Origin: a virus
Length of the DNA stretch: 60,301 nt
IMG/VR virus record: IMGVR_UViG_3300045988_176983
Span: 1 to 60,301 of that record
Reading direction: 5' to 3' (one strand)
Part shown: positions 26,680 through 50,128 of the stretch, piece after piece
Layout: every line of letters starts with the position of its first letter
Position numbering within the stretch: the stretch's first letter is position 1
The notes under the pieces: generated by a model
Databases searched by the model: none
What the model was told of the DNA's origin: nothing
The model's input: only the letters and a program-made list of their open reading frames with translations
Position numbers and translations under genes: made by a program

Positions 26680-27108
26680 ATGTATGTATTTAATTACAAA
26701 ATAAATGACCGCGAAGCGTTTACCTATTATTGGGTAAGGGAAAACGAAGATTACAAAAGAAATATTGTCAAAAACGCGGAATATGATTTTATTCTAACCG
26801 ACAGTATACCAAAGTTTGATATTTTCGGTGAATTATATCCCGTAGTTGACGAAATTACTTCGGTGAACGAAAACGGACACAAAGTCGGCACATTAAAATT
26901 AGTACCGCATATTCAAAGCGACGAGGGGAAAAGAGAAGAGATACGATACAATCGCGAGCAGAAGTGCTTTCCAATAATCAATCGCGGAAAGTTGTGGTAC
27001 GATAAACTAACTGACGAGCAATTAAAAGAGTTGGGCGAATGGTATGTGGCATGGTTAAATGCGCCTGAAACGATGATTGAGCCTGCCGATTTAGAATGGA
27101 TTAAATAA
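26680..27108 (+). CDS. Hypothetical protein, last gene of the rightward late operon (142 aa)
   Basis: RBS gaggagag is present. It is followed by a bidirectional terminator. Confidence 0.55.
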   Translation: MYVFNYKINDREAFTYYWVRENEDYKRNIVKNAEYDFILTDSIPKFDIFGELYPVVDEITSVNENGHKVGTLKLVPHIQSDEGKREEIRYNREQKCFPIINRGKLWYDKLTDEQLKELGEWYVAWLNAPETMIEPADLEWIK

Positions 27109-27114
27109 TAAAAT

Positions 27115-27160
27115 AAACGCGTTATTACACCTTTGAAAGTGCGATAACGCGTTTTTATGT
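27115..27160. terminator. Bidirectional intrinsic terminator between convergent operons
   Basis: aaacgcgttat (27115..27125) pairs with ataacgcgttt (27144..27154), giving an 11-bp stem with an A-run before it and a T-run after it. Confidence 0.75.
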
Positions 27161-27164
27161 TTAT

Positions 27165-27671
27165 TTAGGATAGCGGTCTATCGCCGATAAGATAGGCTTC
27201 TATTGCCGATTTAAGGGCTTCTTTTTTCCCATTGTCGGGCAACGTTTCAATGGCGGCGTTTATGCGGTCTAACACTCGTTCTCTACGTTGTTCGGCGGTT
27301 TCCTCCTCTCGGTCTTTCCTTTGCTCTCTTTTTTCTTTCCAGTCTTCGACCATAACGTTATCAAGTCGCCAGAGTTGTTTTCTTAATAACTTCTTTCGGT
27401 CTTCGATTTCGGCAAGTTGATTTTGTAATTCTTCCTTTTCGATTTTATTGCCGAGAACCTGTTTGCCGATTAAATAATAATCGGGGCAACCGTTCTTTGC
27501 GTCATAAACGGTAATATCTACTCTTTTGCCGTTTTCAAGTTCTATAATCGGTTCAAAAAAACCTCTTTCCTCACAAATCGGGCAATGGCAAATATCGACT
27601 ATTCTGCCTTGTATTCCGTCGTAAGTTATCACCTTATCGCCGACGTTAAATTTTATCTTTATATCTTCCAT
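27165..27671 (-). CDS. Hypothetical protein with a Cys cluster and a charged coiled coil (168 aa)
   Basis: RBS aaaggag is present. Contains CHCPICEERG and then a KREQRKDREEETAEQRRER-type stretch. Confidence 0.55.
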   Translation of the reverse strand: MEDIKIKFNVGDKVITYDGIQGRIVDICHCPICEERGFFEPIIELENGKRVDITVYDAKNGCPDYYLIGKQVLGNKIEKEELQNQLAEIEDRKKLLRKQLWRLDNVMVEDWKEKREQRKDREEETAEQRRERVLDRINAAIETLPDNGKKEALKSAIEAYLIGDRPLS

Positions 27672-27819
27672 TATTCTTTTGCTCCTTTAATTTATCGTAG
27701 CAGTCTTTGCATATTCCTGCGTATTTAGCCGTCCATATAAGGTCGGAATTAAAACATATCTTTCCGCATATTTCGCACGGTTTATAGTCTATCGTTGGCT
27801 GTGGAGTGTAAGGAAACAT
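27646..27819 (-). CDS. Small zinc-ribbon-like protein (57 aa)
   Basis: The start was moved to the Met preceded by aaaaggag. Contains CEICGK...CKDC. Confidence 0.45.
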   Translation of the reverse strand: MFPYTPQPTIDYKPCEICGKICFNSDLIWTAKYAGICKDCYDKLKEQKNNGRYKDKI

Positions 27820-27820
27820 A

Positions 27821-28288
27821 TCAAAACAACTCCTTTTCAATGATATCTCTGTGTTTACGTATGTTTTCTATTGTTTCTTCCGAAAGGGGAAGAATAGGCT
27901 CAACGTGGTATTCTTTTCTTAAATAAGCGAACGCAAAGCCGTAGGCATCTAACTCAACTTCTTGATTGTTGTAGTCGTTTTTATCGTTGCTGTTCGCCAA
28001 TGTTATGTCGTAGTCTTTTATTAAATCATGTTCGATTTGATAGCAATGCCGTAATTCGTGGGCAAGAATCATAATAAAAAATGCAAGATTTGCGTCGGTC
28101 ATATCGTTATAAAGAAATTGATTAGACAATAAGATAGTCAAATCGTCTTTGCTTCCCGTTACGGCAGAGACCAAAGTTTCCGTGGGAAATTTATCTTGCG
28201 GTTGCCATTTTATTTTCGGTTCTTTGATTTTGAGAATGTGGCAACACTCGTACATAGTCCTATGCAAGTACATTTTCCAATAGGTCAT
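27821..28288 (-). CDS. Putative zinc metallopeptidase (HExxH)
   Basis: The ILAHELRHCYQ motif is present. Which family (ImmA/IrrE-like or SprT-like) cannot be decided by eye. Confidence 0.5.
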   Translation of the reverse strand: MTYWKMYLHRTMYECCHILKIKEPKIKWQPQDKFPTETLVSAVTGSKDDLTILLSNQFLYNDMTDANLAFFIMILAHELRHCYQIEHDLIKDYDITLANSNDKNDYNNQEVELDAYGFAFAYLRKEYHVEPILPLSEETIENIRKHRDIIEKELF

Positions 28289-28617
28289 TATGCGGTGATC
28301 TCCTTTGCGTAAATATCGAAGTCGCTCGTTATATACATTTTTCGCTTTTTATTGTATTTCATTGTCTGAATCGTGATAAATTCTATCCCGAAGGCAACGT
28401 CGTTATTTATGCTTCGGTGTCCGTCAAAGCAATATTGTTTGTCTTTTGAAAGGTATTGTTCGGTATCTTCAATTGTCGATTGAGCGATCGTAACGAACGA
28501 GACCGATTGTAATTTTTCGTCCTGTTCGATATCCTTATATCCGAGTAATATCATTCTGTTTTTAATTTGCTCGCGGTCGGCGAGTTTTACAACTTGTGTT
28601 AATTGTTCGTAGTTCAT
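28288..28617 (-). CDS. Hypothetical protein (109 aa)
   Basis: RBS aaaggaaaaaac is present. A near-consensus promoter lies upstream. Confidence 0.55.
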   Translation of the reverse strand: MNYEQLTQVVKLADREQIKNRMILLGYKDIEQDEKLQSVSFVTIAQSTIEDTEQYLSKDKQYCFDGHRSINNDVAFGIEFITIQTMKYNKKRKMYITSDFDIYAKEITA

Positions 28618-28677
28618 TTTGTTTTTTCCTTTGCTTGCTGTTCGTCAAGCCTTATAAGATTTTATTTTGTGTTTTTA

Positions 28678-28706
28678 ATTATAACGGCTGTTCGCCGTAA
28701 AGTCAA
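28678..28706 (-). promoter_or_regulatory. Sigma-70-type promoter (TTGACT-17-TATAAT) reading leftward
   Basis: The minus strand reads cttgactttacggcgaacagccgttataat. One CGAACAG copy sits in the spacer. Confidence 0.6.
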
Positions 28707-28709
28707 GTG

Positions 28710-29657
28710 TTATACGCTTTGTAGGCTGTTCGTAAATTTATCCATTGCCGAGACGGCAGACTGAATGGCAGTGTCTTTATTGAGTATGTGCCGATAAACT
28801 TGTGCCGTTACAAGTGGGTTAGAGTGTCCGAGGTTTTGCGATATTTCGGTCATCGGCATACCGCTCAAATCGCATAAACTCGTGAAAGCGTGGCGTAATG
28901 CGTGAGTCTTTACACTATGTCCGCAGCAATGCTCGGTGTATCTATGAACGAGCATAAGCAGGGCAGGCGACGAGAATTGCTTCCATAATTTACCGCCGGT
29001 ACTTTTGCCGTTCTCGTCCGAATCCGTGCCGAAAAGATAATCGTTGTCGGTACACCAGTCGGGGCGAATACCGCTCGAAAGATACTCTTCGATTATTTCC
29101 TTTGCAACTCGCGGCATTGCAACAAGTCGTTGCTTATCGCCTTTGCCGTGCCGTACCATGATCCTGTTCTGTTCGAAGTCAAGGTCGGCGACGGTCAACG
29201 AACGCAGTTCGCTGTTACGCAAGCCCGCCTGCAAAAGTAAAACTATAATAGCGCGGTTTCTGATTATCGTTTTCCCGCTTAACCCGGTCGGAGTTTTCGT
29301 TATTAGGCTTTTGATTTCGTCGAGCGTTAAAAGGTCATACTCGACGCGTTGCTGTTCGGGTATCTCGTCAAGGTGTACGGGGTTTTCCTGTTCGATTTTC
29401 ATTTTGACGCACCACTCGAAAAATGAGTGTATGAAAATCATATACTGCCTTACGCTGTTTATCTTTATCCCGCTCATAGAAAGGCTTGAACGCCAATTTA
29501 CGACGGTTAAAGGCGTTATCTGTTCGTCGGCTTTCAAGAAGTCCGAAAACTTCCTGAAAGCCAAACTATAAGCCGTAACGGTCTTATCCGATTTCTTCAT
29601 AGAGGGTAGGGCGATAAGGTATTGAGTGCTTATCTCGTTAAATTGTTCTTTATTCAT
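28710..29657 (-). CDS. Tyrosine recombinase, XerC/XerD-like
   Basis: The C-terminal catalytic region reads HALRHAFTSLCDLSGMPMTEISQNLGHSNPLVTAQVYRHI (R..HxxR..Y pattern) and ARNSELRSLTV is upstream of it. The start was set at the second Met (29657), which overlaps the upstream micro-ORF stop. Confidence 0.85.
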   Translation of the reverse strand: MNKEQFNEISTQYLIALPSMKKSDKTVTAYSLAFRKFSDFLKADEQITPLTVVNWRSSLSMSGIKINSVRQYMIFIHSFFEWCVKMKIEQENPVHLDEIPEQQRVEYDLLTLDEIKSLITKTPTGLSGKTIIRNRAIIVLLLQAGLRNSELRSLTVADLDFEQNRIMVRHGKGDKQRLVAMPRVAKEIIEEYLSSGIRPDWCTDNDYLFGTDSDENGKSTGGKLWKQFSSPALLMLVHRYTEHCCGHSVKTHALRHAFTSLCDLSGMPMTEISQNLGHSNPLVTAQVYRHILNKDTAIQSAVSAMDKFTNSLQSV

Positions 29658-29814
29658 TTTTGTTTCTCTCATTTTTAAGCCGACTATTTTCTGCTTTTAA
29701 TTTTTTAATTCTTTTCTCGTACTTCAAAATCATTTGATTGATTTCGCAGTCTTCGCAATCGCCATAATCGTAGCAATACCCAAGTTTGCCTTGTTTACAT
29801 TTTTGTTGTTTCAT
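29650..29814 (-). CDS. Small Cys-rich / basic protein (54 aa), not in the supplied ORF track
   Basis: Translates as MKQQKCKQGKLGYCYDYGDCEDCEINQMILKYEKRIKKLKAENSRLKNERNKNE. RBS ggagaacagca is present. There is an ATGA overlap with the upstream gene, and its stop overlaps the recombinase start. Confidence 0.5.
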   Translation of the reverse strand: MKQQKCKQGKLGYCYDYGDCEDCEINQMILKYEKRIKKLKAENSRLKNERNKNE

Positions 29815-30104
29815 TGCTGTTCTCCTAAATGGTAAATTTTTGCGTTAAAATCCGTTGCTTTGGCTAAAATATCGCGGTGTTTGACCGAAAGTTTTACCGC
29901 CTTGTCTTGATTGAGTAAAACTAAAACCTTAAAAAAGCCGTGATATTCGCCGAGTTTTTGTTCAAGGCAATGTATCTTCGTGGCATTATCGATAGTCGCG
30001 TTATTGTTTAACGATTCCATATTTTGGGCAAGCCTGTTAAGATTTTCGACTGTCTTATCTTCAACTATCTTATTTTCGAGTTTTTGTAAAGTTATCTTTT
30101 TCAT
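29811..30104 (-). CDS. Hypothetical protein (97 aa)
   Basis: RBS aaggag is present. ATGA-coupled to the yopX-like gene. Confidence 0.55.
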   Translation of the reverse strand: MKKITLQKLENKIVEDKTVENLNRLAQNMESLNNNATIDNATKIHCLEQKLGEYHGFFKVLVLLNQDKAVKLSVKHRDILAKATDFNAKIYHLGEQQ

Positions 30105-30472
30105 TTTTCGCTCCTTAAAAGTTCGGGGTTGTCGTAAATATTGCCGATTACTTCAAAATAAGGCTCTGAAAACTTTGTAAAACCTGCAACTTCATAATTG
30201 TCCGAATAAATACCCCAACGCATTTGTTCAGCGTTCCACTTTACCTCGTATCGCTCAAAACCTTTCGCTATAATATCGCCTTCGAATATCTTCTCGCCGT
30301 TCTTATCGGTAAGTCCTGTATATTGTCCGACGGTTTCGGGGATAACTTCGATTTCACGCCAATATGTTAATTCCCCATAAATTTTAGTTGTATCTTTGAA
30401 AAACAATACACTATTGCCAACAACTAATTCGCCGTTGTCTACTCGCTTGCCCCTGAAAAGTATTTCTCTCAT
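30101..30472 (-). CDS. YopX-family protein
   Basis: MREILFRGKR...ETVGQYTGLTDKNGEKIFEGDII...EVIGNIYDNPELL matches the conserved YopX pattern. Confidence 0.85.
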   Translation of the reverse strand: MREILFRGKRVDNGELVVGNSVLFFKDTTKIYGELTYWREIEVIPETVGQYTGLTDKNGEKIFEGDIIAKGFERYEVKWNAEQMRWGIYSDNYEVAGFTKFSEPYFEVIGNIYDNPELLRSEK

Positions 30473-30513
30473 ATTAAATTCCTTTGCCCGCGATACCGCA
30501 CGGGCGCGGTTTA

Positions 30514-30717
30514 TTATATATTACAATCGTTTCGCTTAAAATCGGGTTCGTATTTGCGCGTTATTTCTATTGTCTGTGCCAAAGTTAAGCCGTCGCAATA
30601 TTCGATATAATCAACCGCGCTGTAATAATTGCCGTCTTTCAAGCCGTTGATTTTGCAAAACTCACGGAACAAGCCGCATTTATCTTTTAGGTTTTTTATT
30701 TTAGTCATTGCTCGCAT
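30514..30717 (-). CDS. Hypothetical protein (67 aa)
   Basis: The start was set at the Met preceded by aaggag. The track ORF extends to 30738. Confidence 0.45.
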   Translation of the reverse strand: MRAMTKIKNLKDKCGLFREFCKINGLKDGNYYSAVDYIEYCDGLTLAQTIEITRKYEPDFKRNDCNI

Positions 30718-31048
30718 AGTCTGCTCCTTTATCTGCATTACATTGCGTTACGGTAATACCCTTTAATGGTTTACTGTCAAGCAATGCCATATAGATATTG
30801 TCAACGGCTTTATATTCGGGAGTCATTGCAAATGTAGAATATACGCCCGAAAACAAACGGCGATATTCTGTCGCCCAGAGTTTAGAAAATTCTTCGGCGA
30901 TTATTTCGGGTGAGTGTTCCACGTCGGCAAGTATGCGTGTTTTAATTCTTTCGACTTCCGCGTCGTATATTTTGTTTTCTTCGGGTGTCGATACTCGGTG
31001 ATACCCGGCGGAATAGTCTTTCAAAGTTTTGAAAATGTCTTTTTTCAT
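30701..31048 (-). CDS. Hypothetical protein (115 aa)
   Basis: The start was set at MKKDIF, preceded by gacggaggc. The track ORF extends to 31087, but that extension overlaps a better micro-ORF. Confidence 0.5.
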   Translation of the reverse strand: MKKDIFKTLKDYSAGYHRVSTPEENKIYDAEVERIKTRILADVEHSPEIIAEEFSKLWATEYRRLFSGVYSTFAMTPEYKAVDNIYMALLDSKPLKGITVTQCNADKGADYASND

Positions 31049-31197
31049 TTCTGTTCGCCTCCGTCTTGTTCGTTTTTCTTTATCCAAAGGGCAGTTCTTT
31101 TGCCCTTTTTCGCCTTGTTTAAGGTTGTTGCGAAAACTGCAACGACCACTGCCGTGATTACGGCTAATAAGCCGATTAAAACCGCGTTGATTATCAT
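31045..31197 (-). CDS. Small single-pass membrane protein (50 aa), not in the supplied ORF track
   Basis: Translates as MIINAVLIGLLAVITAVVVAVFATTLNKAKKGKRTALWIKKNEQDGGEQK. RBS ggaggaacagc is present, with ATGA overlaps at both ends. Confidence 0.55.
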   Translation of the reverse strand: MIINAVLIGLLAVITAVVVAVFATTLNKAKKGKRTALWIKKNEQDGGEQK

Positions 31198-31406
31198 TGT
31201 TGCTGTTCCTCCGTGAAGATTATTATCTTATTTGTTTTTGTTGTGCCTATCGATATAAAAGTAACGATGTCGTTACTATGTTCTTCAAAGTAATCGCTTG
31301 CATTTTTCCAAGAAATATCGATAGTGTTCCCGTCGCCGTCGTGGTCTACGATTTGTATGTCGTTACACATATCTAAAACATTTTTAAGTTGTCCTAATGT
31401 TATCAT
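31194..31406 (-). CDS. Hypothetical protein (70 aa)
   Basis: ATGA-coupled on both sides. Confidence 0.5.
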   Translation of the reverse strand: MITLGQLKNVLDMCNDIQIVDHDGDGNTIDISWKNASDYFEEHSNDIVTFISIGTTKTNKIIIFTEEQQQ

Positions 31407-32089
31407 ACGGCAGCCCCCTTTATTTGTTCGACAAACTTTTGTGTGTTCTGTTCGATTGTTGTTTTGCTTTCGTCTGCGATACTGTTTATATTTATCGGCA
31501 ACAATACTGCCGAATAGTCCTTTTCGTTGATTTGAAGCGGGGAGTTTTCGTTCTTGCCGGTGAGAATATGCTCGAAGTCTGTTCCGATAACGCTAAAAGC
31601 CTTTTTAAGATAAAGCGCGTCGAAAAACTTGTTACAATACTTTATCGGGTATTTTTTTGCTTTTTTCTCGTTATAAAGTTTTATGTACTTGTCTATATTT
31701 TCGGCGATTATTTTATCGCTGTCGGTGAGTTCGTATTTTAACATACTTGCCGTTGTACGTAAGATATTGTTTGCGTCAATGCTTTCGTTTGCCGGGGTCT
31801 GCGGTAATGCGTTCAGTTCGGGCTGTTCTTCGTTCCATTTAACGAGAAGGTAGCCGTCGCATATAAATTGCTTTCCGTCCGGTGTATGCTGTATACCGTA
31901 AAGATTTTTACGCCATTCTTTTAAGCCGTTGTCGCAAACAATCTTCTTTACAGCGTTCAAAAGGCTCGTTTTAATGCCTTTCGAGGCTAATATATTCGTC
32001 TCTCTTTCGTAGTTTAATAAGTCGCGTAAATCGTCGATTTTGCCCGTGTTCAAAAGGTCAATACATTTTTCAATCGTTGCCGTGTTCAT
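31403..32089 (-). CDS. Hypothetical protein (228 aa)
   Basis: Long ORF in the coupled operon (TAATG junction). Confidence 0.6.
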   Translation of the reverse strand: MNTATIEKCIDLLNTGKIDDLRDLLNYERETNILASKGIKTSLLNAVKKIVCDNGLKEWRKNLYGIQHTPDGKQFICDGYLLVKWNEEQPELNALPQTPANESIDANNILRTTASMLKYELTDSDKIIAENIDKYIKLYNEKKAKKYPIKYCNKFFDALYLKKAFSVIGTDFEHILTGKNENSPLQINEKDYSAVLLPININSIADESKTTIEQNTQKFVEQIKGAAV

Positions 32090-32553
32090 TATTTATTTTC
32101 TCCTTCTTCTTTATTTTCTATTGTTAAAATTATATTGCTCTCGACGTTTTCAAGGGAGAAGCCGTTGCCTTTTGCCATACAGTGGAAATTGCCTAAAAAT
32201 TCAAAGTTAAGCCTAAATTTTCGACATAATGCGGCGTAATAGGCTTGATATCCTACTGTTCGATAGCATTTTTTACCTGCCGCCGAAGTGTACTCGGTTA
32301 AGATATAATCGTACTTCTTCCAATACCGCAAAATATCTTCCGCTTTTGTCGGCTGTTCGTCCGGCTGTTCGTTTAATTCTATGCTCGTGATTATAGACTG
32401 CAATTCTAAAACTGCTTGCCACTGTCTTTCGTTAAGGTTTTTATTATCGTGGTAAAGATAATTGATTTTTGCTCGCGCGTGTTTTATCGCGCCGGCGGCG
32501 GTTGCTACGCCGATTCCTACTTCTTTATTGATTTTCTCGCAATTGATTCTCAT
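32089..32553 (-). CDS. Hypothetical protein (154 aa)
   Basis: A gene in the coupled operon. Confidence 0.55.
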   Translation of the reverse strand: MRINCEKINKEVGIGVATAAGAIKHARAKINYLYHDNKNLNERQWQAVLELQSIITSIELNEQPDEQPTKAEDILRYWKKYDYILTEYTSAAGKKCYRTVGYQAYYAALCRKFRLNFEFLGNFHCMAKGNGFSLENVESNIILTIENKEEGENK

Positions 32554-32705
32554 TTTATATTTACTCCCGTGATTTTTTCGTTGTCTATAAACTTTTTCGC
32601 TTGCTCGCTGTTCGCGATAAAAAGCAAGTAGCGAGCGCGTTCCCGTTCCGAAAGCGGAAGGTTTAATTCCGCTTTCGCTTTGATTCTCTGTTCGTTCCTT
32701 TTCAT
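32550..32705 (-). CDS. Small helical protein (51 aa), not in the supplied ORF track
   Basis: Translates as MKRNEQRIKAKAELNLPLSERERARYLLFIANSEQAKKFIDNEKITGVNIK. There is an ATGA overlap with the next gene. Confidence 0.45.
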   Translation of the reverse strand: MKRNEQRIKAKAELNLPLSERERARYLLFIANSEQAKKFIDNEKITGVNIK

Positions 32706-32780
32706 ATTTTGCCCCCTTATGCGATTGCCGCTTTTATGCGGTTTCTTTCGTTGCTTGCCAAGCCGTAAAAGGCTTCGCCG

Positions 32781-33266
32781 TTAGAAAATCTCGCCGTTAG
32801 AAAATCTCGCCGTACAAACGTACTCTTCGAAGTCGTACAAGTTTTTTAATTTTGTTCGGCAAAAGTTAAGTATTTTACGAAGTTCGCGCTGTTCGGCTTT
32901 CTTTCTGTCAGAGTACGACATATCAAAATCGTCGTAATAGCCGTAGTACGCTTTTTCTTCGGCGCGTCCTTTCTTCCAATCGGCGGCGGAATAGTATTTT
33001 GTCAGGAACGCGCAACCGTAGGAGTCCGTCTTATCTTTAAGCAAGGTTTGCACGCCCTCATAATAACCGCTTTCGAGTTTTAATTGAAAATAGTTAAGTC
33101 CGTCGTTAAACTCGTCTACGAGTTTTTGAGCCTGTTCGAAGTCGTAGCCGTTATCGTCGAAGTATTCAGTCTCGCCCGTGTCCGGGTCTTCGTAATAATA
33201 GCCGTCGAAGTGTTTAGTCGCAAAAAGCGGGAAGTCGTTTTGATTAGTAAAGTTACAAGTAGACAT
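32781..33266 (-). CDS. Acidic hypothetical protein (161 aa)
   Basis: The start was set at MSTCNF, preceded by agagga. The protein is rich in Asp, Glu and Tyr. Confidence 0.5.
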   Translation of the reverse strand: MSTCNFTNQNDFPLFATKHFDGYYYEDPDTGETEYFDDNGYDFEQAQKLVDEFNDGLNYFQLKLESGYYEGVQTLLKDKTDSYGCAFLTKYYSAADWKKGRAEEKAYYGYYDDFDMSYSDRKKAEQRELRKILNFCRTKLKNLYDFEEYVCTARFSNGEIF

Positions 33267-33392
33267 AATTTTTTTATCCTCTGCGTGCTTGCCTGTTCGG
33301 GTCAAGTCTTACCGCTATTTTTTATTTTTTATCTGTTCGTCGTGTTATCTGTTCGCCGCCCCGCCTTTCAGGGAAGGGCGGCTGTTCGTTTA

Positions 33393-35156
33393 TTATTTTG
33401 CTATCAAGTCTATTACGGGCGTATATCCGAGCGTTTTATAATACTTCATAACGCTTTTAATATATCCGTCTGCGCCTGCGCCCGCAAAATTTACGAGTTG
33501 CAAGCCGCTTGAAGCGTCGCCATATTTTAGGCTGTTCGGCACTTGCGGAAGTATTCCGCGATATAAGGCGAACGCTTCGCCCCGGTGGAAGTGTAACTCG
33601 TCGGGCTTTCTTTTGCCGTCTCTCGTTATCGTTATTTTGCCCGCGTCGGAATATTGCGCCCACGCTTTTGCTTCTATGCTTTCAAGCGTTCCGCGGTATT
33701 CCTGCGCCATAAGTACCCATCCGTTGACTGTTAAAACGGTTACGCGTTCGCCCGGTTGTAAATAGGCTTGCGCTATCTGTTCGCTAACGGGCGCGGGAAT
33801 ATAGAACGGCTCGCGCTTGCTTGTCTCGGCTTTTTGGTTCGCTATCCACTCGGCGGCGTTTTCGCTGTCCGCCTGTTCGTCGAAGCCTTCGGGTAATTGC
33901 AAGATATAACGCGCATAACTAAACCCTTCGGGGTCGATAATAAATTGAAGTACGCCGTTATTATAAACCGCTACGCAATCGTGAGCGTACCATTTTACGC
34001 CTTCGCGCTGTTCGCTCGTGAATTTATCATAATTCTCTTCGTTGACTCGTTCGTCTGCCGTCGCCTGTCCGCCTTTACCTTTCAAGAAAGAGAAATCAAA
34101 CATAAACAACCGGCAAAAGTTCGCAAAAATCTTTTTGTCGTTATCGGAATAGCCGTTGAAGTCCACGCGGCGCGACGGTATAGCGTCCACTCTCGGCAAC
34201 TGTTCGCCGTCCTTTACGTATTCTTCAAGCCACTTTTCGCCTTCTTCAAGGCTCGCTATTTTGCGATATTCCGCAAGGTCAAAATATATCCTTCTTTCGT
34301 TTTCGGGTATATCCGTAATGATTGCCGCCTTCTCTATCTGTTCGCGGGCGATTGCGTCCTTCTGCGCTTGTATACGCGCCGCCGCCTCGTCCTTTTCGCG
34401 TTGTATTCTGTCGCGTTCGCATTGCGCCAAAAATTCCGCATGGTCTCTTTCTTCTTTTTCGGCTTTCCTTTTCTTGAAGTCCGCAATGTCCGCCCGCTGT
34501 TCGTCCGTCGGCTCGGTCTGTTCGTAATTGCCGGGGATTTGAAAATAACCGCCGTAAAAATGTACGTCGAAGTAGTCCGTCATACTGTCGGAGTCGTCGT
34601 AATTCCAAGAATCGGCAAGGGCTTTACAATAGGCTTGTACGGCGTTTAATTCGTCGCTGTCTTCAAAATATCCGTACTTGTCAGGCTCGCCCGTTCGTCT
34701 GTCCTTGTAGACGTGTTCGCGCCCATACGGCGAAGCCTTTATATATGCGTCTATTGTGTTGTATGTCGAAGTTATCGAAAATTTTACTTCGGGGAAGCGC
34801 GTTTTTAATTCTTTACGCAAAAGCGCGGCAACGTCTTTTACGGGCGGCAACGCGTTTTTGTCGTGTTGTTTTATCTCGCTTATATCGCAACGCTCCCAAA
34901 GGCTCGGCAAGCGATTTTTTGCCGCTTTTGCGGGAGTTTTCGCGCTCGTCGTCTGTTCGTCCGCGTTCGCCGTCGTTACGCCGTCAAGGGCGGTGCGTAT
35001 GGTCTCTTCGTCCGTGTAACCGTACCAAAGGCGGCGGACTCCGTGCCACCGGTAGCCGTTCGCTTTTAATGCGTTGCGCGTCTGTTCGTCGGGCTTGCCG
35101 GCGAAGGTAATCTCTAAACTGTTAAAATTATTATTTTTGTTTATTGCGTATTCCAT
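33393..35156 (-). CDS. Large acidic early protein (587 aa), function unknown
   Basis: The start was set at MEYAINK, preceded by acggaggc. The N-terminal motif KPDEQTRNALKANGYRWHGVRRLWYGY is followed by a central charged coiled coil. It contains nine Glu-Gln dipeptides, each encoded by GAACAG. Confidence 0.65.
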   Translation of the reverse strand: MEYAINKNNNFNSLEITFAGKPDEQTRNALKANGYRWHGVRRLWYGYTDEETIRTALDGVTTANADEQTTSAKTPAKAAKNRLPSLWERCDISEIKQHDKNALPPVKDVAALLRKELKTRFPEVKFSITSTYNTIDAYIKASPYGREHVYKDRRTGEPDKYGYFEDSDELNAVQAYCKALADSWNYDDSDSMTDYFDVHFYGGYFQIPGNYEQTEPTDEQRADIADFKKRKAEKEERDHAEFLAQCERDRIQREKDEAAARIQAQKDAIAREQIEKAAIITDIPENERRIYFDLAEYRKIASLEEGEKWLEEYVKDGEQLPRVDAIPSRRVDFNGYSDNDKKIFANFCRLFMFDFSFLKGKGGQATADERVNEENYDKFTSEQREGVKWYAHDCVAVYNNGVLQFIIDPEGFSYARYILQLPEGFDEQADSENAAEWIANQKAETSKREPFYIPAPVSEQIAQAYLQPGERVTVLTVNGWVLMAQEYRGTLESIEAKAWAQYSDAGKITITRDGKRKPDELHFHRGEAFALYRGILPQVPNSLKYGDASSGLQLVNFAGAGADGYIKSVMKYYKTLGYTPVIDLIAK

Positions 35157-35169
35157 AAAATAGCCTCCG

Positions 35170-35361
35170 TTACTTATTGAAAAAATATCTTGAAATTTCT
35201 TTATAAAGTCCTTCTTCGGTTTTATCCCACAAATCAAAATCAAGGGGATCGCCGTAATTATCGCGGAAATATTCCCGCAATTCCTTTATATTTTCGAAGT
35301 CGAAATCGTTACAAATGCGTTTTATCGCTTTTCGCTGTTCTTTTGTCATAATCGCCACCAT
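35170..35361 (-). CDS. Hypothetical protein (63 aa)
   Basis: TAATG-coupled to the upstream gene. Confidence 0.45.
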   Translation of the reverse strand: MVAIMTKEQRKAIKRICNDFDFENIKELREYFRDNYGDPLDFDLWDKTEEGLYKEISRYFFNK

Positions 35362-35735
35362 TAAATAAAGTAAACGCTTCTATTAAAATAAACTACTTTC
35401 TTCGGCTGTTCGCTAAAAAAGTAAGCCGTTACACCATCCGCGCCCGCGTGGAAAGTGCCGAAGGGCGTTATCGCGTTCGCTTCGTCGTCGCTTTCCGTCG
35501 TGTAAATGGCGTTGCGCTTGTCGAAGTGTTCGTGAAAAAGATTTACAAACGCGAAGCCGTCGAAGTCGCCGTGTTCGGCTGTCATAAACTTTTCAAACGC
35601 TACCGCTTCGGCGTTCTGTTCGCACTCATATTGCGCCCGAAGTGCCTCTTCGCGTTTTGCAATCGTTGCCGGCGACGGCTTACGCCCGCCGCGCCTGTTC
35701 GCCTTTTTCGGTTGATTGTATCTTGAAAACAACAT
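35361..35735 (-). CDS. Hypothetical protein (124 aa); start uncertain
   Basis: An open frame, but no obvious RBS precedes the first ATG. Confidence 0.4.
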   Translation of the reverse strand: MLFSRYNQPKKANRRGGRKPSPATIAKREEALRAQYECEQNAEAVAFEKFMTAEHGDFDGFAFVNLFHEHFDKRNAIYTTESDDEANAITPFGTFHAGADGVTAYFFSEQPKKVVYFNRSVYFI

Positions 35736-35877
35736 AATAAAAACCCTTTACGCGTGCGCGGCGTTTTTACCGCTCGCGCCTTACCGCGTTAGCCTGTCAT
35801 CATCGGGGCGGGGAGGCTATCCCACCGCCGAAGGCTTCAACCGTTGCCGGCTGTTTGCCTTTTCGACTGTTCGCGCC

Positions 35878-36147
35878 TTATATCTTGATATAGTCTTCGA
35901 TAAGCGTATTAAAATAGCCGTCGAAAGTCTTATCGCTTCGGCGATATGCTTTTAACAAGTCTTCGCCGTCTAAAAGAGTCGGCGCGGCGTAGTATTCCGC
36001 CGGGTAAGTTATTTTTATAACTTTTTTTTCACCGTAAAACCAATCATAAACGACATCAAGCCCGACTCCGTAGTTTTTCGCTTCTTCGTCTTTTTTCATT
36101 TGTTGCTTCAACTCATTGCAAAACGTTTTACTTGCTTTTATAACCAT
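35878..36147 (-). CDS. Hypothetical protein (89 aa)
   Basis: The start was set at MVIKAS, preceded by gggagggc. Confidence 0.5.
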   Translation of the reverse strand: MVIKASKTFCNELKQQMKKDEEAKNYGVGLDVVYDWFYGEKKVIKITYPAEYYAAPTLLDGEDLLKAYRRSDKTFDGYFNTLIEDYIKI

Positions 36148-36149
36148 TT

Positions 36150-36530
36150 TTAAGCCCTCCCGCAATCAAGACCTGCGCCCGTTTTCCATTCATAAATAGA
36201 TAATTGACGGCGCGCCCTTCCGATTTTTAACGCCTTTTTTTTGCTTTTTATGTTTTCGCTTATATCGATATAACAAAACCCATCATCGCACCAAAGCCCA
36301 ACGCACTCCGCCGCGCTTATGCTGTTTAATAACTCGTTGACCGCTTCAACGATTTTTTTCGGCTTGCCTGTTAAAATCTTGTAACAGTCGCGGCGGCTTA
36401 CTTGATAGCCCTTCGAAAATCTAACCGCTTCGCCGTCCTTGTTAAGCGTTGCGCCGCCGTTTTTGATAATCTCGAACACGTTCAAAAGTGTTATTTTTTG
36501 CGCCTTGTTTGCTTGCTTTTCGTTTGTCAT
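36150..36530 (-). CDS. Hypothetical protein, first gene of the leftward block (126 aa)
   Basis: RBS ggaggttgaaaaa is present. Confidence 0.55.
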   Translation of the reverse strand: MTNEKQANKAQKITLLNVFEIIKNGGATLNKDGEAVRFSKGYQVSRRDCYKILTGKPKKIVEAVNELLNSISAAECVGLWCDDGFCYIDISENIKSKKKALKIGRARRQLSIYEWKTGAGLDCGRA

Positions 36531-36628
36531 TTTTTCAACCTCCGCCCGGCGTGGCGCGTTTTGCGCTCACGGCTTACGGGCTTTTTTAATTTTTTCGTTA
36601 AAAAAAGCGACTTGCCACCGAAAAACGC

Positions 36629-36657: not shown

Positions 36658-36936
36658 ACAAGCGAACGGGATCGCCGAAGGCGTTCTTGTTTGTGTGCCG
36701 TTTTCGCTCTGTCTGGTAAACGTTCGCGAAGGCGGCTTTTTTATGTCCTTTTCTAACTGTCTTTATTATACCATCATTAGAAAAAGAAGTAAAACAAATA
36801 CGCGCAAATCAAAAAATTGTGCAAGTGTATAATATATATTAAAATTACATATAAATAAAGAGATTATATAAATTATTATACAAATGTAATATTTTTATTA
36901 AAATTATATGCTTTTATCTTCGTTTATCCGATTTTT

Positions 36937-36963
36937 ACGCCGTCCGCCCGTCGGCGTTTTTTA
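36937..36963 (+). terminator. Intrinsic terminator candidate
   Basis: acgccg (36937..36942) pairs with cggcgt (36952..36957), followed by tttttt. Confidence 0.5.
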
Positions 36964-36999
36964 TTACTCAAAACACCACCGAACAACCCCGCAACCACG

Positions 37000-37022
37000 C
37001 CCGGCAACCCGCCCGGCAACCC
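37000..37022 (-). other. Canonical G-quadruplex motif (G3N5G3N1G3N5G3) on the minus strand; a tandem CCCGGCAACCC repeat on the plus strand
   Basis: The plus strand reads cccggcaacccgcccggcaaccc. Confidence 0.6.
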
Positions 37023-37167
37023 GTCCGCGCTTTCTTACAATTAAACGCAATACCAAAAACACAACCGCCGCCCAGAACGCCGAAAACAAACAGCCCAAAG
37101 CCCCGAAGCAATATATATAATTATTCAACAATGTTGATATAATAACAAGCGTTATTTTAACGCCCGC

Positions 37168-37370
37168 AAGCCCTTATATATATAAAAAGCCTTTATATAT
37201 TATAAATTGCCTTTATTATTGTAAAAGCCCTTTTCAATGCTTTTAACGCTTTTAAGCATATAAAAAGCCCTTACAACCTTAAAAGCCTTTATATTATGCT
37301 TAAACGCTTTTATATATCGTAAAAGCCTTTTTCATACTCTATATATTTTTAATGCATTGAAAAAGCCTTT
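37168..37370 (+). repeat. Iteron-like array of AAAAGCC(C/T)TT in AT-rich DNA
   Basis: Exact copies start at 37185, 37223, 37263, 37281, 37321 and 37361, with spacings of 38, 40, 18, 40 and 40 bp. Degenerate copies lie at 37168, 37205 and 37475. ATGCTT..AAGCAT palindromes are interspersed. Confidence 0.75.
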
Positions 37371-37622
37371 TCTATTTTAATAGCGTTTTCGTGATATTAT
37401 ATTTTAATGCTTAAAAGCATTTTAATATATTTTTCGTTTTTTATATGCTTATATGTTTTTTTTAATGCTATATATGAAAAAGCACTTCATCGCTTTGGCG
37501 TGTTCGCCGTTGCGACTTACGGAAGCCCAAGCCCGCGCCGCTTTTGCGTTGCGTTAGCCGTTGCCGAACGTGTAAAGGCTTTTCGGCTTGCGTTTGCTTG
37601 CGTGTTGCTTTTTGCTTAAATA

Positions 37623-38425: not shown

Positions 38426-38500
38426 AGCAGAGTAGGGCAGCGGTAGCCCGTCAGGGTCATAGCCTGAAAGTCGAAGGTTCGAGTCCTTCCTCTGCAACCA
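38426..38500 (+). tRNA. tRNA with anticodon CAU (Met, or Ile2 if modified); CCA encoded
   Basis: Hand-folded cloverleaf. The D-arm is gggc/gccc with loop agcggta. The anticodon arm is tcagg/cctga with loop gtCATag. The T-arm is gaagg-ttcgagt-ccttc. The acceptor is agcagag/ctctgca, with an apparent A1-A72 mismatch. Confidence 0.8.
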
Positions 38501-38572: not shown

Positions 38573-38648
38573 AGGGGCATAGCCAAGCGGTAAGGCAGCG
38601 GACTTTGATTCCGTGATTTCGGAAGTTCAAATCTTTCTGCCCCTGCCA
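38573..38648 (+). tRNA. tRNA-Gln (anticodon UUG); CCA encoded
   Basis: The acceptor is aggggca/tgcccct and the D-arm is gcc-aagcggtaa-ggc. The anticodon arm is gcgga-ctTTGat-tccgt and the T-arm is ggaag-ttcaaat-ctttc. It closely parallels bacterial tRNA-Gln. Confidence 0.85.
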
Positions 38649-39108: not shown

Positions 39109-39145
39109 CTTTTTAAGGGTGGTGGAGATAAGGGGAAAAGACAAA

Positions 39146-39250: not shown

Positions 39251-39276
39251 GAACCCAAAAAATGAACCCAAAAAAT
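39251..39276. repeat. Tandem 13-bp direct repeat GAACCCAAAAAAT x2 abutting the integrase stop (arm-site candidate)
   Basis: Two exact copies at 39251..39263 and 39264..39276. ATTTGTTAT repeats lie just upstream (39224..39250). Confidence 0.6.
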
Positions 39277-40418
39277 CATTGTATGCGGGATATAATATTG
39301 CGTTTGTCTTCTTCGTATAAATGACCGTAAGTTTTGAGAACCTGCTCGACGGTATCGCCTATAAGGTCGGCTACGACGTAAACGCTTGCGCCGAGGTGAA
39401 TACACATAGAAACGAAAGAATGTCGTAGGTCGTGTATTCTTATGCGTTTAACGCCTGCTTTTTCGATATAGCGGTCAAACGCGTGAGCAAGGCTGTTTTC
39501 GTGTAAAGGGTGGTCGCCACTAAAATAAAACGGTTTCTGCGGGGTGTAATTTGCGAGAACTTTTTTAAGAGGGTCGCAAATAATTGTTTTAGCCCGGCGT
39601 TCGTTTTTAGTGGTGGTGATTTTGTAAGGGGAGTTGTCGGTTGTTTTCCGAGTATAAGTTTTGTCGAATACGATATAGTCGCGGTGTACGTCGGTATTGT
39701 GTAGGGCAAGAACTTCGCCTTTTCGCCGTCCTGTAAAATAGAGTGTGTTAAAAATGGCATAGTAGGCGGGGTTGTCCACTACGTCGATAAATTTAGCGAA
39801 CTCTTCGCGTGTCCAGAACTGCATTTCGGTTTTTTGTACGCGTTGCTTCGGCTTTTTTACTTTTTTAAGATTGTTAGGGTATTGATAGCGAGATTCGACC
39901 CAAGACAAAAACGCAGCCATTGTATTGCGGATATTGCAAAGACGACTGTAAGAATAAAACTCGCCCGTGCGAGGGCTGCGCGTACTCCATAATTTGTCTT
40001 GCCATTCGTAAAGTTTAGGTGGTGTTAAATCGGCAATTTTAGTGTTTCCAAAATAAGGCAAGATAAAATTGTTTAAGACGTTGGCTCGGTCGTAAATCGT
40101 GCTGTCTTTGTTTTGGTTTACCATTGAAGTGAGATAAATAGGAATAAGGCTTTCGACCGTTAATTCCTCTTTACCTTCGGCAATGGATTTTTCTTTTTTG
40201 AGAGGTAAATTTTTAACGATTTCGCAGTTTTTCGTTATGAAGTCTATATGCGCCTGCTTTGCGAGGGCTTTCGACTTGTAACCCGATAACTTTTTGTAGG
40301 TTTCTTCGCCGGTAGGGAGTATTACCCTGAAACGAATGTCGTAGACTTTTCCGTTTAATTTCGTCTGCCGTTCTTGTATGTTTGCTTTCGTGCTGCTTAT
40401 GTAGTACTTCTCGTTCAT
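39276..40418 (-). CDS. int: Phage integrase (tyrosine recombinase)
   Basis: 380 aa. The C-terminal region reads RIHDLRHSFVSMCIHLGASVYVVADLIGDTVEQVLKTYGHLY. The N-terminus is arm-binding/SAM-like. It lies adjacent to the attP-like repeats and the repressor module. Confidence 0.9.
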   Translation of the reverse strand: MNEKYYISSTKANIQERQTKLNGKVYDIRFRVILPTGEETYKKLSGYKSKALAKQAHIDFITKNCEIVKNLPLKKEKSIAEGKEELTVESLIPIYLTSMVNQNKDSTIYDRANVLNNFILPYFGNTKIADLTPPKLYEWQDKLWSTRSPRTGEFYSYSRLCNIRNTMAAFLSWVESRYQYPNNLKKVKKPKQRVQKTEMQFWTREEFAKFIDVVDNPAYYAIFNTLYFTGRRKGEVLALHNTDVHRDYIVFDKTYTRKTTDNSPYKITTTKNERRAKTIICDPLKKVLANYTPQKPFYFSGDHPLHENSLAHAFDRYIEKAGVKRIRIHDLRHSFVSMCIHLGASVYVVADLIGDTVEQVLKTYGHLYEEDKRNIISRIQ

Positions 40419-47338: not shown

Positions 47339-49423
47339 ATGCAGATAAGTATGTTTGACGGCGATAAGCCTTTCAAGGTTGATAAACCGTTGAGATTGAT
47401 AACTCTTTTTTCGGGGTACGACAGTCAGGCGTTGGCTCTTAAATATCTCGGCGTGCCTTTCGAGCATTACAAAACGTGCGAATGGGCGATTCCGTCGATA
47501 CAGGCGTTAAAAGACCTGCACTTCGAGAACGACGACACCGATTATTCGGTCGGAATGAATAAAGCCGAACTCGTAGAAACTTTATATACGGCGGGCGTGA
47601 GTGCCGATTACAACGTGCCGCTCACGAAAGAACAATTGCAAAGATACGGCGAAAACAAATTGCGGACGATTTACAATAATATCCGCGCTTGCCACAATCT
47701 CGTTTCGATATGCAATGCAAAAGGCGAAGACTTGGGAATTAAAGAAACGAACAAATATTGTTACTTACTTACGTATAGTTTTCCGTGTTTAACAGCCGAT
47801 AGTTTAATTTTAACAAAAGACGGGTACAAACCGATTGTTGACATAAAAGTGGGCGATTATGTTTTAACAAAGTCGAACACTTGGCAGAAAGTTGCGAAGA
47901 AATTTTCAAATGGTATACATAAAACCTTTTACGTTCAAGGAATGAATTTTGAAAATATTCACTGCACTGCCAACCATAAATTTTATGTCAGGTCAAAATT
48001 TTATAAAGGACACAAAAAAATTCGTTCATTTACCGAACCCGCTTTCAAGGAAGTGAAAGATATAACGCGTAACGATTATTTCGGCGTTCCTGTTATTCAA
48101 ATCGAAAAGTTTTTTTATACAAACGATTTAGATTTTTGGTATATGATAGGCTATTACTTGGGCGACGGGTGGTTGAGTAAAAACGGAACAGATATATGCT
48201 TGGCTTGTAACGATAAAAAATTTGAAAAATTACAATCGCGACTTCTGAAAGAAAAATGGAATTGGACTTGCTATTTTTCTTCAACGTGTGGACGATTTAG
48301 GTTTTCAAATAAAAACATATACAAGTTCATTAAGAAGTATATCGGAACGGGTTGTAATAAAAAGAATATTAGTGCCGATATTTTGAATTTGCCTAAACAG
48401 CAACTTCAAGCATTGTTTGAAGGGTATTTAGACAGCGACGGTTGTGTAATCAATGGTAAAATGCAATTTTCTACGGTTAATAGGCAAATGGCGTATGGGT
48501 TTTCAGCGATAATAAATAAACTTTACCATAGGGCGGTAAGTTTTAATAGAACCAAAGTAAAACCACAAAAAGTAATACAGGGTAGAATTGTCAACCAAAG
48601 AGAGTGGTATTTATTGAGGTTTAACCCTAAAAACTCGAAACAGGACAAGGCTTTTTATGAAAATGGGTATATATGGTATCCGTTTAATAAAATCGAACAA
48701 GGCGACGACGAGTTTGTTTTCAATATGGAAATAGAAAACGACCATAGTTATATCGTTCAATCTTGTATCTCGAAAAATTGTCAGGACTTATCCGCCGCCG
48801 GGTTAGGCAAAGGTATGGAACGCGGGAGCGGCACTCGAAGCGGTATGCTTTGGGAAGTCGAAAGGCTTTTGAAAGAAACGAAAGAACTTCCGCAAGTGCT
48901 TTTAATGGAAAACGTAAAACAGGTAATCGGGCAAAAGAACATTAAAGCGTTCGCCGAGTGGGTAGCGTTTTTAGACGAACTTGGTTATCACTCGAAATGG
49001 CAGGTAATAAATGCGACGGACTTTTCAATTCCGCAAAACCGCGAGCGTTGCTTTATGGTAAGCGTACTCGGCAATCACTATTACGAATTTCCGAAAACAA
49101 TCGGCAACAAGTTAAAACTAAAAGACTTACTCGAAAAGTCCGTCGCCGAGCAGTACTACATAAGCGAAAAAATTGTTGAGACCTATTACAAGAGAAACAT
49201 TCTCAACGAGGAAAAGGGAAACGGTTTCAGGTTTGAGCCTACCGAGGGGGAAAACGTTGCCAACTCGGTGCTTACAAGAAACGGCAGTCGCCCTTGCGAT
49301 AATTACATTATTCAACGTTCTCACGGGTTCAATAAAGGCGGTAAGAAAAACGACTGCCCGGCAATAACGACGAGTGCATTTGAGCAAAATAATATGATTG
49401 TAGAGGTAAACCGTGAAGAATGA
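47339..49423 (+). CDS. DNA (cytosine-5) methyltransferase, N-terminal/catalytic module (motifs I-VIII), interrupted by an intein
   Basis: Motif I is LFSGYDSQ. Motif IV is split as TYSFP | intein | CQDLSAAG. Motif VI is LLMENV and motif VIII is QNRERCFMVS. Confidence 0.85.
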   Translation: MQISMFDGDKPFKVDKPLRLITLFSGYDSQALALKYLGVPFEHYKTCEWAIPSIQALKDLHFENDDTDYSVGMNKAELVETLYTAGVSADYNVPLTKEQLQRYGENKLRTIYNNIRACHNLVSICNAKGEDLGIKETNKYCYLLTYSFPCLTADSLILTKDGYKPIVDIKVGDYVLTKSNTWQKVAKKFSNGIHKTFYVQGMNFENIHCTANHKFYVRSKFYKGHKKIRSFTEPAFKEVKDITRNDYFGVPVIQIEKFFYTNDLDFWYMIGYYLGDGWLSKNGTDICLACNDKKFEKLQSRLLKEKWNWTCYFSSTCGRFRFSNKNIYKFIKKYIGTGCNKKNISADILNLPKQQLQALFEGYLDSDGCVINGKMQFSTVNRQMAYGFSAIINKLYHRAVSFNRTKVKPQKVIQGRIVNQREWYLLRFNPKNSKQDKAFYENGYIWYPFNKIEQGDDEFVFNMEIENDHSYIVQSCISKNCQDLSAAGLGKGMERGSGTRSGMLWEVERLLKETKELPQVLLMENVKQVIGQKNIKAFAEWVAFLDELGYHSKWQVINATDFSIPQNRERCFMVSVLGNHYYEFPKTIGNKLKLKDLLEKSVAEQYYISEKIVETYYKRNILNEEKGNGFRFEPTEGENVANSVLTRNGSRPCDNYIIQRSHGFNKGGKKNDCPAITTSAFEQNNMIVEVNREE
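47786..48778 (+). mobile_element. Intein (331 aa) with a LAGLIDADG homing-endonuclease domain
   Basis: Block A is CLTADSLILTKDG and block B is TANH. The LAGLIDADG motifs are WYMIGYYLGDGW and LFEGYLDSDGC. The C-terminal block is VFNMEIENDHSYIVQSCISKN. The +1 residue is the Cys of the methyltransferase PC motif. Confidence 0.85.
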
Positions 49424-50128
49424 AACAAAAGGCTGTATTGTCATCGGACGGCTTGGCGGTAAATTCGAGCATACTCTTGACCTTACAAGACGAGTTTATG
49501 ACGTTAATGCGGTTGCGCCGACTATAACGACGTGCGGGGGGGTAATACAGAACCTAAAATTATGGAAGAAAAAGATTATCGTTTTTACAATCAGGCGTGG
49601 GAGACTATAAAAAATCACGACTGTAAAGCGGGCGACATAGTAGACGCTTTTAACAAAAAAGTCAACGATAGTGGCATATCCCCGACGATTACTACGCGCC
49701 CGGAAGGTTTCAAAACCGCAATATTGTTAGTTGACGAACCGCAACAAGACAAAGAGATTATCGTCTTTGACGATTATAACGGTTGCGTAAAAGCCGACCA
49801 AAGTTCCGTCGGAACTTTGACACGGAATTGCGGGAACGACGCAATACGAAACGGAATAAAAATCGTAGAAAAAGAAGCGGATAGACAACAAGATATTGCC
49901 CCATATCGAATACGAAAACTTACGGAGCGAGAATGTGGCAGGCTTATGGGCGTTAAAGACGACGACATAGCCAAAATCGGCAAGAATTTAAGTCGGTCGG
50001 CACAATATCATATGTTTGGCGACAGCATAGTAACGAGTTGCCTTATGGCGATATTTGGCAAAATGTTTAACGTAGACTATGAAAGCAAAATTAAAGAATT
50101 AACAAAAAATTTAACAGGAGAGGGTTAA
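49413..50128 (+). CDS. C5-methyltransferase C-terminal module (target-recognition repeats plus motifs IX-X), with a reading-frame change at a G7 tract
   Basis: The frame-0 piece (GTG 49413, RBS agagg) reads ...RVYDVNAVAPTITTCGG. After G7 (49536..49542) the sequence continues in the -1 frame as GNTEPK...ISPTITTRPEG...RKLTERECGRLMGV...FGDSIVTS, ending at 50128. Confidence 0.6.

Follow-up and report, generated by a model that had tools for sequence, protein, structure and literature searches.

Few DNA signals leave their mark on protein sequence through selection, and oriented oligomer arrays, such as Chi sites, the KOPS (FtsK-orienting polar sequences) and uptake sequences, belong to them. The arrays known so far are all signals of host genomes. 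Here we analyse a 60,301-nt stretch of DNA, IMG/VR record IMGVR_UViG_3300045988_176983 (hereafter the window), which is a complete temperate siphophage-type genome, and within it an array of the 7-mer CTGTTCG (hereafter the word) that is borne by a mobile operon and is 10–50 times denser than those host signals. The array is conserved across phages of many uncultured human-gut Clostridia and is tied to a Xer-like tyrosine recombinase in an apparent anti-defence or lysogenic-conversion region. It resembles the known oriented-oligomer systems in form, but the defining features of those systems failed here or could not be shown, and no described system explains it.

Co-oriented, terminally clustered Chi sites occur in lambdoid phages that lack a recombination (Rec) module, with 20:3 copies in the two orientations in LLS and 32:0 in MD8 (Zheng et al. 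2025, PMC12315714). These arrays, and that of the Chi-rich phage P1, likewise consist of a short 7–8-nt word that is over-represented, clustered and in one orientation, with density mattering over exact position; Chi is moreover the host's own over-represented and skewed word, and the arrays adjoin an open cos end. KOPS and the SpoIIIE recognition sequences (SRS) are likewise co-oriented, purine-rich 7–8-mers (e.g., GGGNAGGG, GAGAAGGG and GAAGAAG) that are functionally linked with a Xer-type recombinase and whose orientation is essential. To our knowledge, FtsK–KOPS–XerCD/dif is the only system in which co-oriented 7–8-mers are paired with a Xer recombinase. KOPS are sparse, chromosome-wide and skewed around dif, whereas the array here belongs to a phage operon and exceeds them in density ∼50-fold. 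The uptake sequences of Pasteurellaceae (uptake signal sequences) and Neisseriaceae (DNA uptake sequences) likewise recur about once per kb or more, are fitted into tolerated reading frames, shape peptides and in some cases form terminator stems. They are host-owned, genome-wide and in both orientations, whereas the word is phage-borne and confined to one operon and one strand. The T4 RegB target GGAG, nut and ops give class- or operon-specific control by being read on the transcript or the non-template strand, as we suggest below for the word. RegB sites are 4-mers that lie mostly in Shine-Dalgarno sequences, and nut and ops occur once or twice per operon; we know of no dispersed transcript-level array of 30–50 copies.

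The array lies in a leftward accessory operon that contains an LPD29-domain protein, YopX, many small uncharacterised proteins and, at its end, the Xer-like recombinase gene:

27990–35873, minus strand: the array, 36 exact words, CTGTTCG on the plus strand and CGAACAG when read with the minus-strand genes, from counts.
27165–36530, minus strand: the accessory operon holding the array, ∼21 co-directional genes on a uniform coding strand, convergent with the tail/late genes.
33393–35153, minus strand: gene for the LPD29-domain protein (586 amino acids (aa), domain match), with 10 words.
28710–29672, minus strand: gene for the Xer-like tyrosine recombinase (320 aa), with 5 words; the catalytic R, K, HxxR, H and Y are invariant.
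29661–30511, minus strand: word-free cassette insertion that includes YopX (30101–30472) and is missing from the relatives L006, L007 and L010.

We call the leftward accessory stretch that holds the array the block. Its genes are all encoded on the minus strand, and in the coding or mRNA sense the word is therefore CGAACAG. The window contains 39 matches to CTGTTCG, compared with 6.9 ± 2.8 expected (largest 18) in dinucleotide shuffles. A recount recovered exactly the 36 plus-strand copies that an earlier interpretation made without database searches (the sequence-only reading) had listed between 27990 and 35873, and likewise its absence of antisense copies in the block (36:0). Elsewhere in the window there is no plus-strand copy. 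The three outside copies are all on the minus strand; two had been placed correctly at 4751 and 6060, and the third, given as 59551, begins at 59552. With these three copies only, the remaining ∼51 kb of the phage shows no enrichment. CTGTTCG is the top 7-mer in the block by a wide margin (n = 36; the next non-overlapping word has n = 13), enriched ∼70-fold in 8 kb at about one copy per 200 bp. The aligned block copies share no conserved flanking bases, so the unit is the bare, true 7-mer. Spacing is irregular, and no partner element or fixed spacing is kept beside the words in the block. A degenerate core is slightly more frequent, with 48 RAACAG 6-mers and 53 AACAG 5-mers in the sense orientation and two antisense AACAG.

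Thirty of the 36 copies lie within open reading frames (ORFs), and 22 of these 30 are framed xxC GAA CAG, encoding Glu-Gln. The sequence-only reading had noticed this frame in 9 of 10 copies of the LPD29-domain gene (its 587-aa ORF) and in 4 of 5 copies of the recombinase gene, and both counts hold. Its description of intergenic clusters needs trimming: ∼6–8 copies are truly intergenic, while the copy at 35406 is inside a 124-aa ORF and that at 28726 falls in the last codons of the recombinase gene. The word-free stretch that it saw at 29527–31050 is real and consists mostly of the cassette insertion (29661–30511). Since this insertion is both word-free and missing from relatives, newly acquired cassettes come without the word.

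The word is selected at the nucleotide level. When synonymous codons were permuted within each gene (1000 runs), the coding sequence of the block retained 7.2 ± 2.1 copies (maximum 14), compared with 31 in the real sequence. Glu-Gln dipeptides are enriched 3.8-fold, at 40 per 3034 residues in the block (1.3%) versus 45 per 12966 elsewhere (0.35%). They are encoded GAA-CAG in 27 of 40 cases in the block (67%) versus 7 of 45 elsewhere (16%), and the codon that precedes GAA-CAG ends in C in 23 of 27 versus 2 of 7. Both codon choice and protein sequence are bent toward the word. The block has 43 CAG codons, 27 of them within in-frame GAA-CAG pairs, most of which are words. Across five relatives at 87–95% identity, the word is intact in 82–97% of cases versus 49–77% for background 7-mers, and its gains and losses occur at one-mismatch sites through single transitions. 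The earlier proposal that a DNA or RNA word was selected and placed where coding tolerates it is borne out by the shuffles, the relatives and the placement alike.

The array is not peculiar to this phage. Using Logan/ENA assemblies, GTDB genomes, IMG/VR and metagenomes, we examined the neighbourhoods of LPD29 homologues and of the recombinase. A dense co-oriented array is present in >20 further prophage modules of uncultured gut Clostridia, so homologous blocks in related phages do keep an oriented word. Its form differs between lineages:

L135: CTGAACAG.
L131, L136 and L258: GAACAGA.
L172–L174 and L259–L262: AGAACAGA.
L140, L175–L180 and L266–L270: TAAACAG.
L271: CAGAACAG.

Sequence logos across the lineages show an invariant AACAG preceded by a purine, i.e., a core RAACAG, with lineage-specific outer positions. 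In 11 array lineages AACAG occurs 398 times in sense and 35 times in antisense orientation. Typical arrays have 4–6 RAACAG per kb, compared with a background of ∼0.6 per kb per strand in host DNA. In every module the words are on the coding strand, lie within a single operon that adjoins attP and point toward the recombinase gene and the operon end. Judged by named homologues and genome matches, the hosts are uncultured gut Clostridia (Eubacteriales, Lachnospiraceae, Acutalibacteraceae and Roseburia-like bacteria). In the window, the attachment site is as follows:

39120–39128, no strand assigned: attP core TCTCCACCA, from a relative assembled as an integrated prophage.
39276–40418, minus strand: main integrase, a separate tyrosine recombinase without words (homology).

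The array operon is on the attP side away from the integrase. With the att core fixed at 39120–39128, the operon sits at the attR end of the prophage, transcribed inward and convergent with the tail genes.

The company that the array keeps is specific. None of >60 loci with generic tyrosine recombinases has an array, and LPD29 genes in other operons that lack the recombinase have no words or a decaying remnant (L130, L132, L141 and L144). Three lineages (L259, L260 and L262) have arrays with 35–37 sense and 0–1 antisense words and no upstream LPD29 gene. The LPD29 protein, whose short versions keep only the N-terminal ∼55 aa, is therefore common in array modules and dispensable for the array, which leaves the Xer-like recombinase as the only universal companion. 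No near matches to the array were found in GenBank phages. A scan of IMG/VR for triple words returned almost exclusively tandem or coding repeats and revealed no other array families, and full-text searches of the literature turned up no account of the word or of arrays of this kind in these modules. We conclude that the array is real, strongly selected and evolutionarily maintained, and that the accessory operons bearing it make up a family of their own among the prophages of gut Clostridia. As such it offers a simple sequence signature for finding these modules and a handle on gene control in organisms not yet cultured.

Unrelated IMG/VR contigs contain short intergenic clusters of 5–6 co-oriented CGAACAG, 10–67 nt apart and iteron-like (L029 1581–1702, L121 1325–1526, L052 7956–8282, and L023); some of these contigs also have sparse scattered copies.

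Array anatomy follows a transcription unit. The following sites bound the operon or lie within it:

36765–36793, minus strand: candidate operon promoter, TTTACT-17-TATAAT with TG, in a divergent AT-rich control region (consensus match only).
28678–28706, minus strand: internal promoter-like site, TTGACT-17-TATAAT, whose spacer holds a word (28688–28694) within an inverted repeat acgg/ccgt (sequence match).
27102–27167, no strand assigned: inverted repeat, terminator-like in both directions, that separates the operon from the convergent tail genes (from the sequence).

The span of the array is a block of uniformly co-directional genes. Word density is at background in the convergent tail genes, and also in the co-directional upstream genes (integrase and repressors). 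Arrays stop at or before the terminator, and in L175 and L178 the terminator stem is itself made of the last word; in the window, no words of the array lie past the terminator-like repeat. Words overlap TGA and TAA stops, hence the T in CTGAACAG and TAAACAG, and they fill the spacers between Shine-Dalgarno sequence and ATG and occupy hairpin loops. Intergenic DNA makes up 10% of the arrays yet holds 20% of the words, a twofold enrichment. Irregular spacing and placement where it is cheapest indicate selection for number and orientation rather than position, as expected if a machine reads many weak sites cumulatively.

We propose that the operon is controlled through the summed action of its words, a strand-specific signal sensed on the transcript or on the non-template strand; we would give this reading a probability of roughly one in three (0.35). 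The array forms a positively selected ‘operon tag’, with ∼4–6 copies per kb along the coding strand of a single accessory operon. Its reader would recognise single strands, either the mRNA or the non-template DNA strand, while the operon is being transcribed or afterwards. This factor, specific for the sequence and perhaps an RNA-binding protein, a ribonuclease or an elongation factor, would act cumulatively and with a small effect per copy, so that density and orientation would matter and exact position would not. In this way elongation, processing or stability would be regulated for this operon specifically, and the regulation would determine how strongly the distal genes, the recombinase included, are expressed. 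Among the options raised by the sequence-only reading (a Chi-like array, a polarity signal, a binding array and an RNA-level motif), the last fits the anatomy best; that the word is read on RNA or on the non-template strand is what we infer. We count in favour of transcript or non-template reading the strict sense-strand bias, the match between array and transcription unit, the selection on the word, the weight of density over position and the lack of a host-wide signal. In addition, the words are 2–4 times likelier to be unpaired in predicted sense RNA than composition-matched k-mers (seven of seven lineages, p = 1e-6 to 3e-3), and the complementary words show no unpairing bias in predicted antisense RNA.

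Several observations weigh against this proposal. In the window, the native flanks of the words are no better than shuffled flanks for accessibility (p = 0.29); because this control failed, we give the unpairing little weight, and it may reflect purine-rich surroundings. A related recombinase clade (L181 and L275–L279) has no array, and the RNA model alone does not explain why the array keeps company with this recombinase family. RegB-type targets are paired with a phage-encoded, sequence-specific RNase; here the motif is on the sense strand and confined to an operon, and no RNase or RNA-binding protein was recognised by annotation among the module proteins. The LPD29 model has no fold match. 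Finally, ∼30 modules include no case of an inverted gene within the array, which leaves transcript-level readings and DNA-polarity readings indistinguishable. The LPD29 protein itself was considered as the reader of the word and rejected: its AlphaFold model is good (predicted local distance difference test score of 87) and matches nothing in the PDB by fold or sequence, and arrays exist without it.

A broader formulation comes close to even odds in our judgement: that the array represents an undescribed kind of cis-acting signal, a dense polar tag evolved by mobile accessory operons on their own sense strand, with a dedicated reader that gives operon-autonomous control. That reader might be the co-inherited Xer-like recombinase acting outside recombination, or a Clostridial RNA or DNA machine. 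The tag might, for example, meter recombinase expression, block or unload loop-extruding or translocating complexes, or mark self nucleic acid in an anti-defence island. Identifying the reader could bring to light an as yet undescribed mechanism of regulation or protection in gut phages.

The universal presence of the recombinase suggests an alternative in which each word is a half-site that binds one Xer-like recombinase monomer on DNA without recombination, an explanation that we consider unlikely. The polar nucleoprotein so formed might serve autoregulation, silencing, or the blocking or unloading of complexes of the SMC (structural maintenance of chromosomes) type; the model here is XerD of Bacillus subtilis, which binds XDS half-sites. 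This recombinase family is the sole gene accompanying every array, including those without LPD29 (L259, L260 and L262), and generic tyrosine-recombinase loci lack arrays. The half-site of a simple tyrosine recombinase is ∼6–8 nt, the size of the word, and the core is kept across lineages, as is the recombinase. Co-variation between word and enzyme is loose, however: L259 and L172 share a word although their recombinases are just 54% identical, and the array-bearing L136 has its nearest relatives in the L278 clade, which lacks arrays. Duplex binding alone does not require strict co-orientation with transcription. Nor is there a conserved full site, i.e., two inverted half-sites around a 6–8 bp spacer kept with the enzyme, and junctions of mosaics and deletions do not coincide with words.

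Specific candidates for recombination at words were rejected. The only inverted core pair in the window (CTGTTA-caagattt-TAACAG, 36368–36387), located within the operon's first gene a short way upstream of the array, was dropped as a core site: its occurrence does not exceed chance, and beyond the closest relatives it is not kept. Words are not crossover points. Comparison of relatives puts the junctions at ribosome-binding sites, at ATG codons and, in one case, at a GCAAGCC microhomology. The latter is a 1.3-kb, in-frame-looking deletion in the LPD29 gene of one relative (L005/L009 junction, window 35092/33771). Both endpoints in L009 are 3–12 nt from a word, perhaps by chance or through an assembly variant; resolved to single bases, the junction is the 7-nt GCAAGCC, and word-to-word recombination was therefore rejected. 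An integron-like cassette array with attC-type sites at the crossovers does not describe the locus either, as most words are inside ORFs and junctions are elsewhere.

The pairing of co-oriented 7–8-mers with a Xer-type gene in every array module also recalls KOPS, and this link gives the idea its appeal. The words might load and orient a host FtsK/SpoIIIE-type translocase, or another motor, toward the site of the Xer-like enzyme, a polarity signal that we regard as decidedly unlikely. The words are purine-rich, as KOPS and SRS are, all modules aim them at the recombinase gene and the operon end, and the lineage-specific flanks could reflect different hosts. Yet host DNA is unskewed (RAACAG 13:12 in 21.6 kb), no dif-like or otherwise conserved site was found across lineages (none among their common 12-mers), the density of one word per ∼200 bp far exceeds that of chromosomal KOPS, and the array matches a transcription unit rather than a region flanking a site.

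The hypothesis that led the sequence-only reading was Chi: plus-strand CTGTTCG would convert AddAB/RecBCD entering from the 36.5–38 kb side, protecting the DNA and promoting recombination. We now hold this to be very unlikely. In form the word qualifies, being short, co-oriented and clustered (36:0 in 7.9 kb), and oriented clusters of the LLS/MD8 type are documented in phages (PMC12315714). Directly upstream of the array, an AT-rich region with 31-nt direct repeats at 36.8–37.45 kb could be an origin or an end, and the contigs of two relatives break there. However, Chi is a host word, and in ∼27 kb of host DNA near the integration site CGAACAG is at chance and without skew: 2:0 copies (∼2.6 expected) in the unoccupied attB region L247 (host contig ERZ28621889 scaffold_3, 21.6 kb), and 1 + 1 copies in 12 kb flanking an integrated relative. 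The sample is small and partly another mobile element, so it is indicative and leaves Chi disfavoured. The rest of the phage (51 kb) shows no enrichment. Whereas Chi-rich phages lack a Rec module, this phage carries its own YqaJ/RecT/SSB module, a class mostly without Chi (PMC12315714). Whereas Chi arrays adjoin an open cos end, the array lies mid-map beside attP and ∼24 kb from the terminase gene, and the contig ends of eight relatives are scattered (21.9, 36.5, 36.8, 39.3, 39.7 and 41.4 kb), giving no evidence of a physical end at 36.5–38 kb. The word is not G-rich, unlike known Chi sites, and a Chi array would not be predicted to follow the sense strand of one operon or to be inherited with a Xer-like recombinase. 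If Chi or KOPS were nonetheless the answer, the array would define those motifs for a major gut clade.

Asymmetric N6-adenine methylation (Type III, Type ISP/IIG, BREX-like or by a phage orphan enzyme), with the words as a strand-specific mark or decoy, seems highly improbable. RAACAG shares the NNNCAG form of asymmetric sites such as CAGCAG, ACRCAG and GATCAG, which is a lead only; the phage has three methyltransferases, and the host encodes a 1352-aa ResIII+Eco57I enzyme 6 kb from attB. ISP/IIG-type enzymes read asymmetric 6–7-bp sites and need head-to-head pairs. The 36 co-oriented EcoP15I (CAGCAG) sites of T7 are a precedent for orientation bias, likewise an asymmetric NNNCAG-type word in ∼36 copies on one strand. 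In T7, the bias reflects escape from an enzyme that needs inverted sites together with uniform gene orientation, and CAGCAG is neither enriched nor regional, whereas the word is ∼70-fold enriched in 8 kb. Restriction sites would be expected to be avoided or biased in orientation rather than enriched in one operon, and the three opposite copies elsewhere in the genome would still permit head-to-head cleavage. In L247 (1–3992), the ResIII helicase plus Eco57I-type methyltransferase gene, resembling a Type ISP/IIG restriction-modification enzyme, stands beside an integrase and a rolling-circle Rep gene.

We give as little credence to a non-adaptive by-product of local mutation, repair or gene-conversion bias, or of a protein-level Glu-Gln preference: many words do fall at Glu-Gln dipeptides, some conserved in the LPD29 family, and turnover is by single transitions, but words are twofold enriched between genes, GAA-CAG is the codon pair chosen and follows a C in 23 of 27 cases, conservation exceeds background, the array recurs with lineage-specific flanks in >20 modules, and it decays once LPD29 leaves the module. 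Extracytoplasmic function (ECF) sigma −35 elements, Spo0A and SinR boxes, primase sites, the T7 class II terminator, the phosphorothioation motif GAAC, an anti-tag and CRISPR were all dropped because the sequence does not fit.

A repeated leader element precedes several genes of the operon. RTAAG and one further base lead into a 4-bp stem, then a bulged A, a second stem of 2–6 bp and a loop that is often GNRA; GGAGG and ATG come next. Copies were found as follows:

Window 36550–36577, 35757–35784, 33288–33312 and 28633–28655, minus strand: leader element.
Relatives L135 (7174, 7794, 8094, 9072, 11960 and 14937), L134 (3969 and 5914) and L174 (2654): leader element.

The stems vary between copies yet remain complementary through compensatory changes, and two of the loops in the window are formed by the word itself. 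The element may act in RNA processing or stability or as a translational operator. A tie between the words and this RTAAG hairpin was rejected, as the hairpins are present in only some array lineages.

In L133/L135 (2374–6929 and 14126–16749), the CTGAACAG-type module and its divergent neighbour encode an Acb2/Tad1-like sponge, DarA_C, DUF4942 and a proteasome-like protein. These anti-defence-type genes suggest that such regions are anti-defence islands.

The remainder of the window is organised as follows. Terminase and structural genes occupy the plus strand up to 27.1 kb. Beyond the array operon, the AT-rich stretch at 36800–37450 holds four ∼31-nt direct repeats (37242–37433) and several inverted repeats between divergent promoters, and could represent operators, an origin or merely a repeat that breaks assemblies. 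A rightward unit between this control region and attP encodes tRNA-Met(CAT) (38426–38500) and tRNA-Gln(TTG) (38573–38648), both on the plus strand. The lysogeny genes comprise attP, the main integrase and repressors. The attB core is also TCTCCACCA, and integration occurs at the 3′ end of a large serine recombinase gene (L002 ∼6170–6180; L171 ∼7295–7305; L247 ∼11.6 kb), which places the prophage beside or within another mobile element. Beyond attB are host core genes for peptidase M18, pst-phoU and a two-component system. A rightward early region encodes SSB, YqaJ exonuclease, RecT and the three methyltransferases. The gene at 47339–49423, for a C5 cytosine methyltransferase, is split by an intein with a LAGLIDADG domain and is followed by a separate ORF (49532–50128) with C-terminal methyltransferase motifs.

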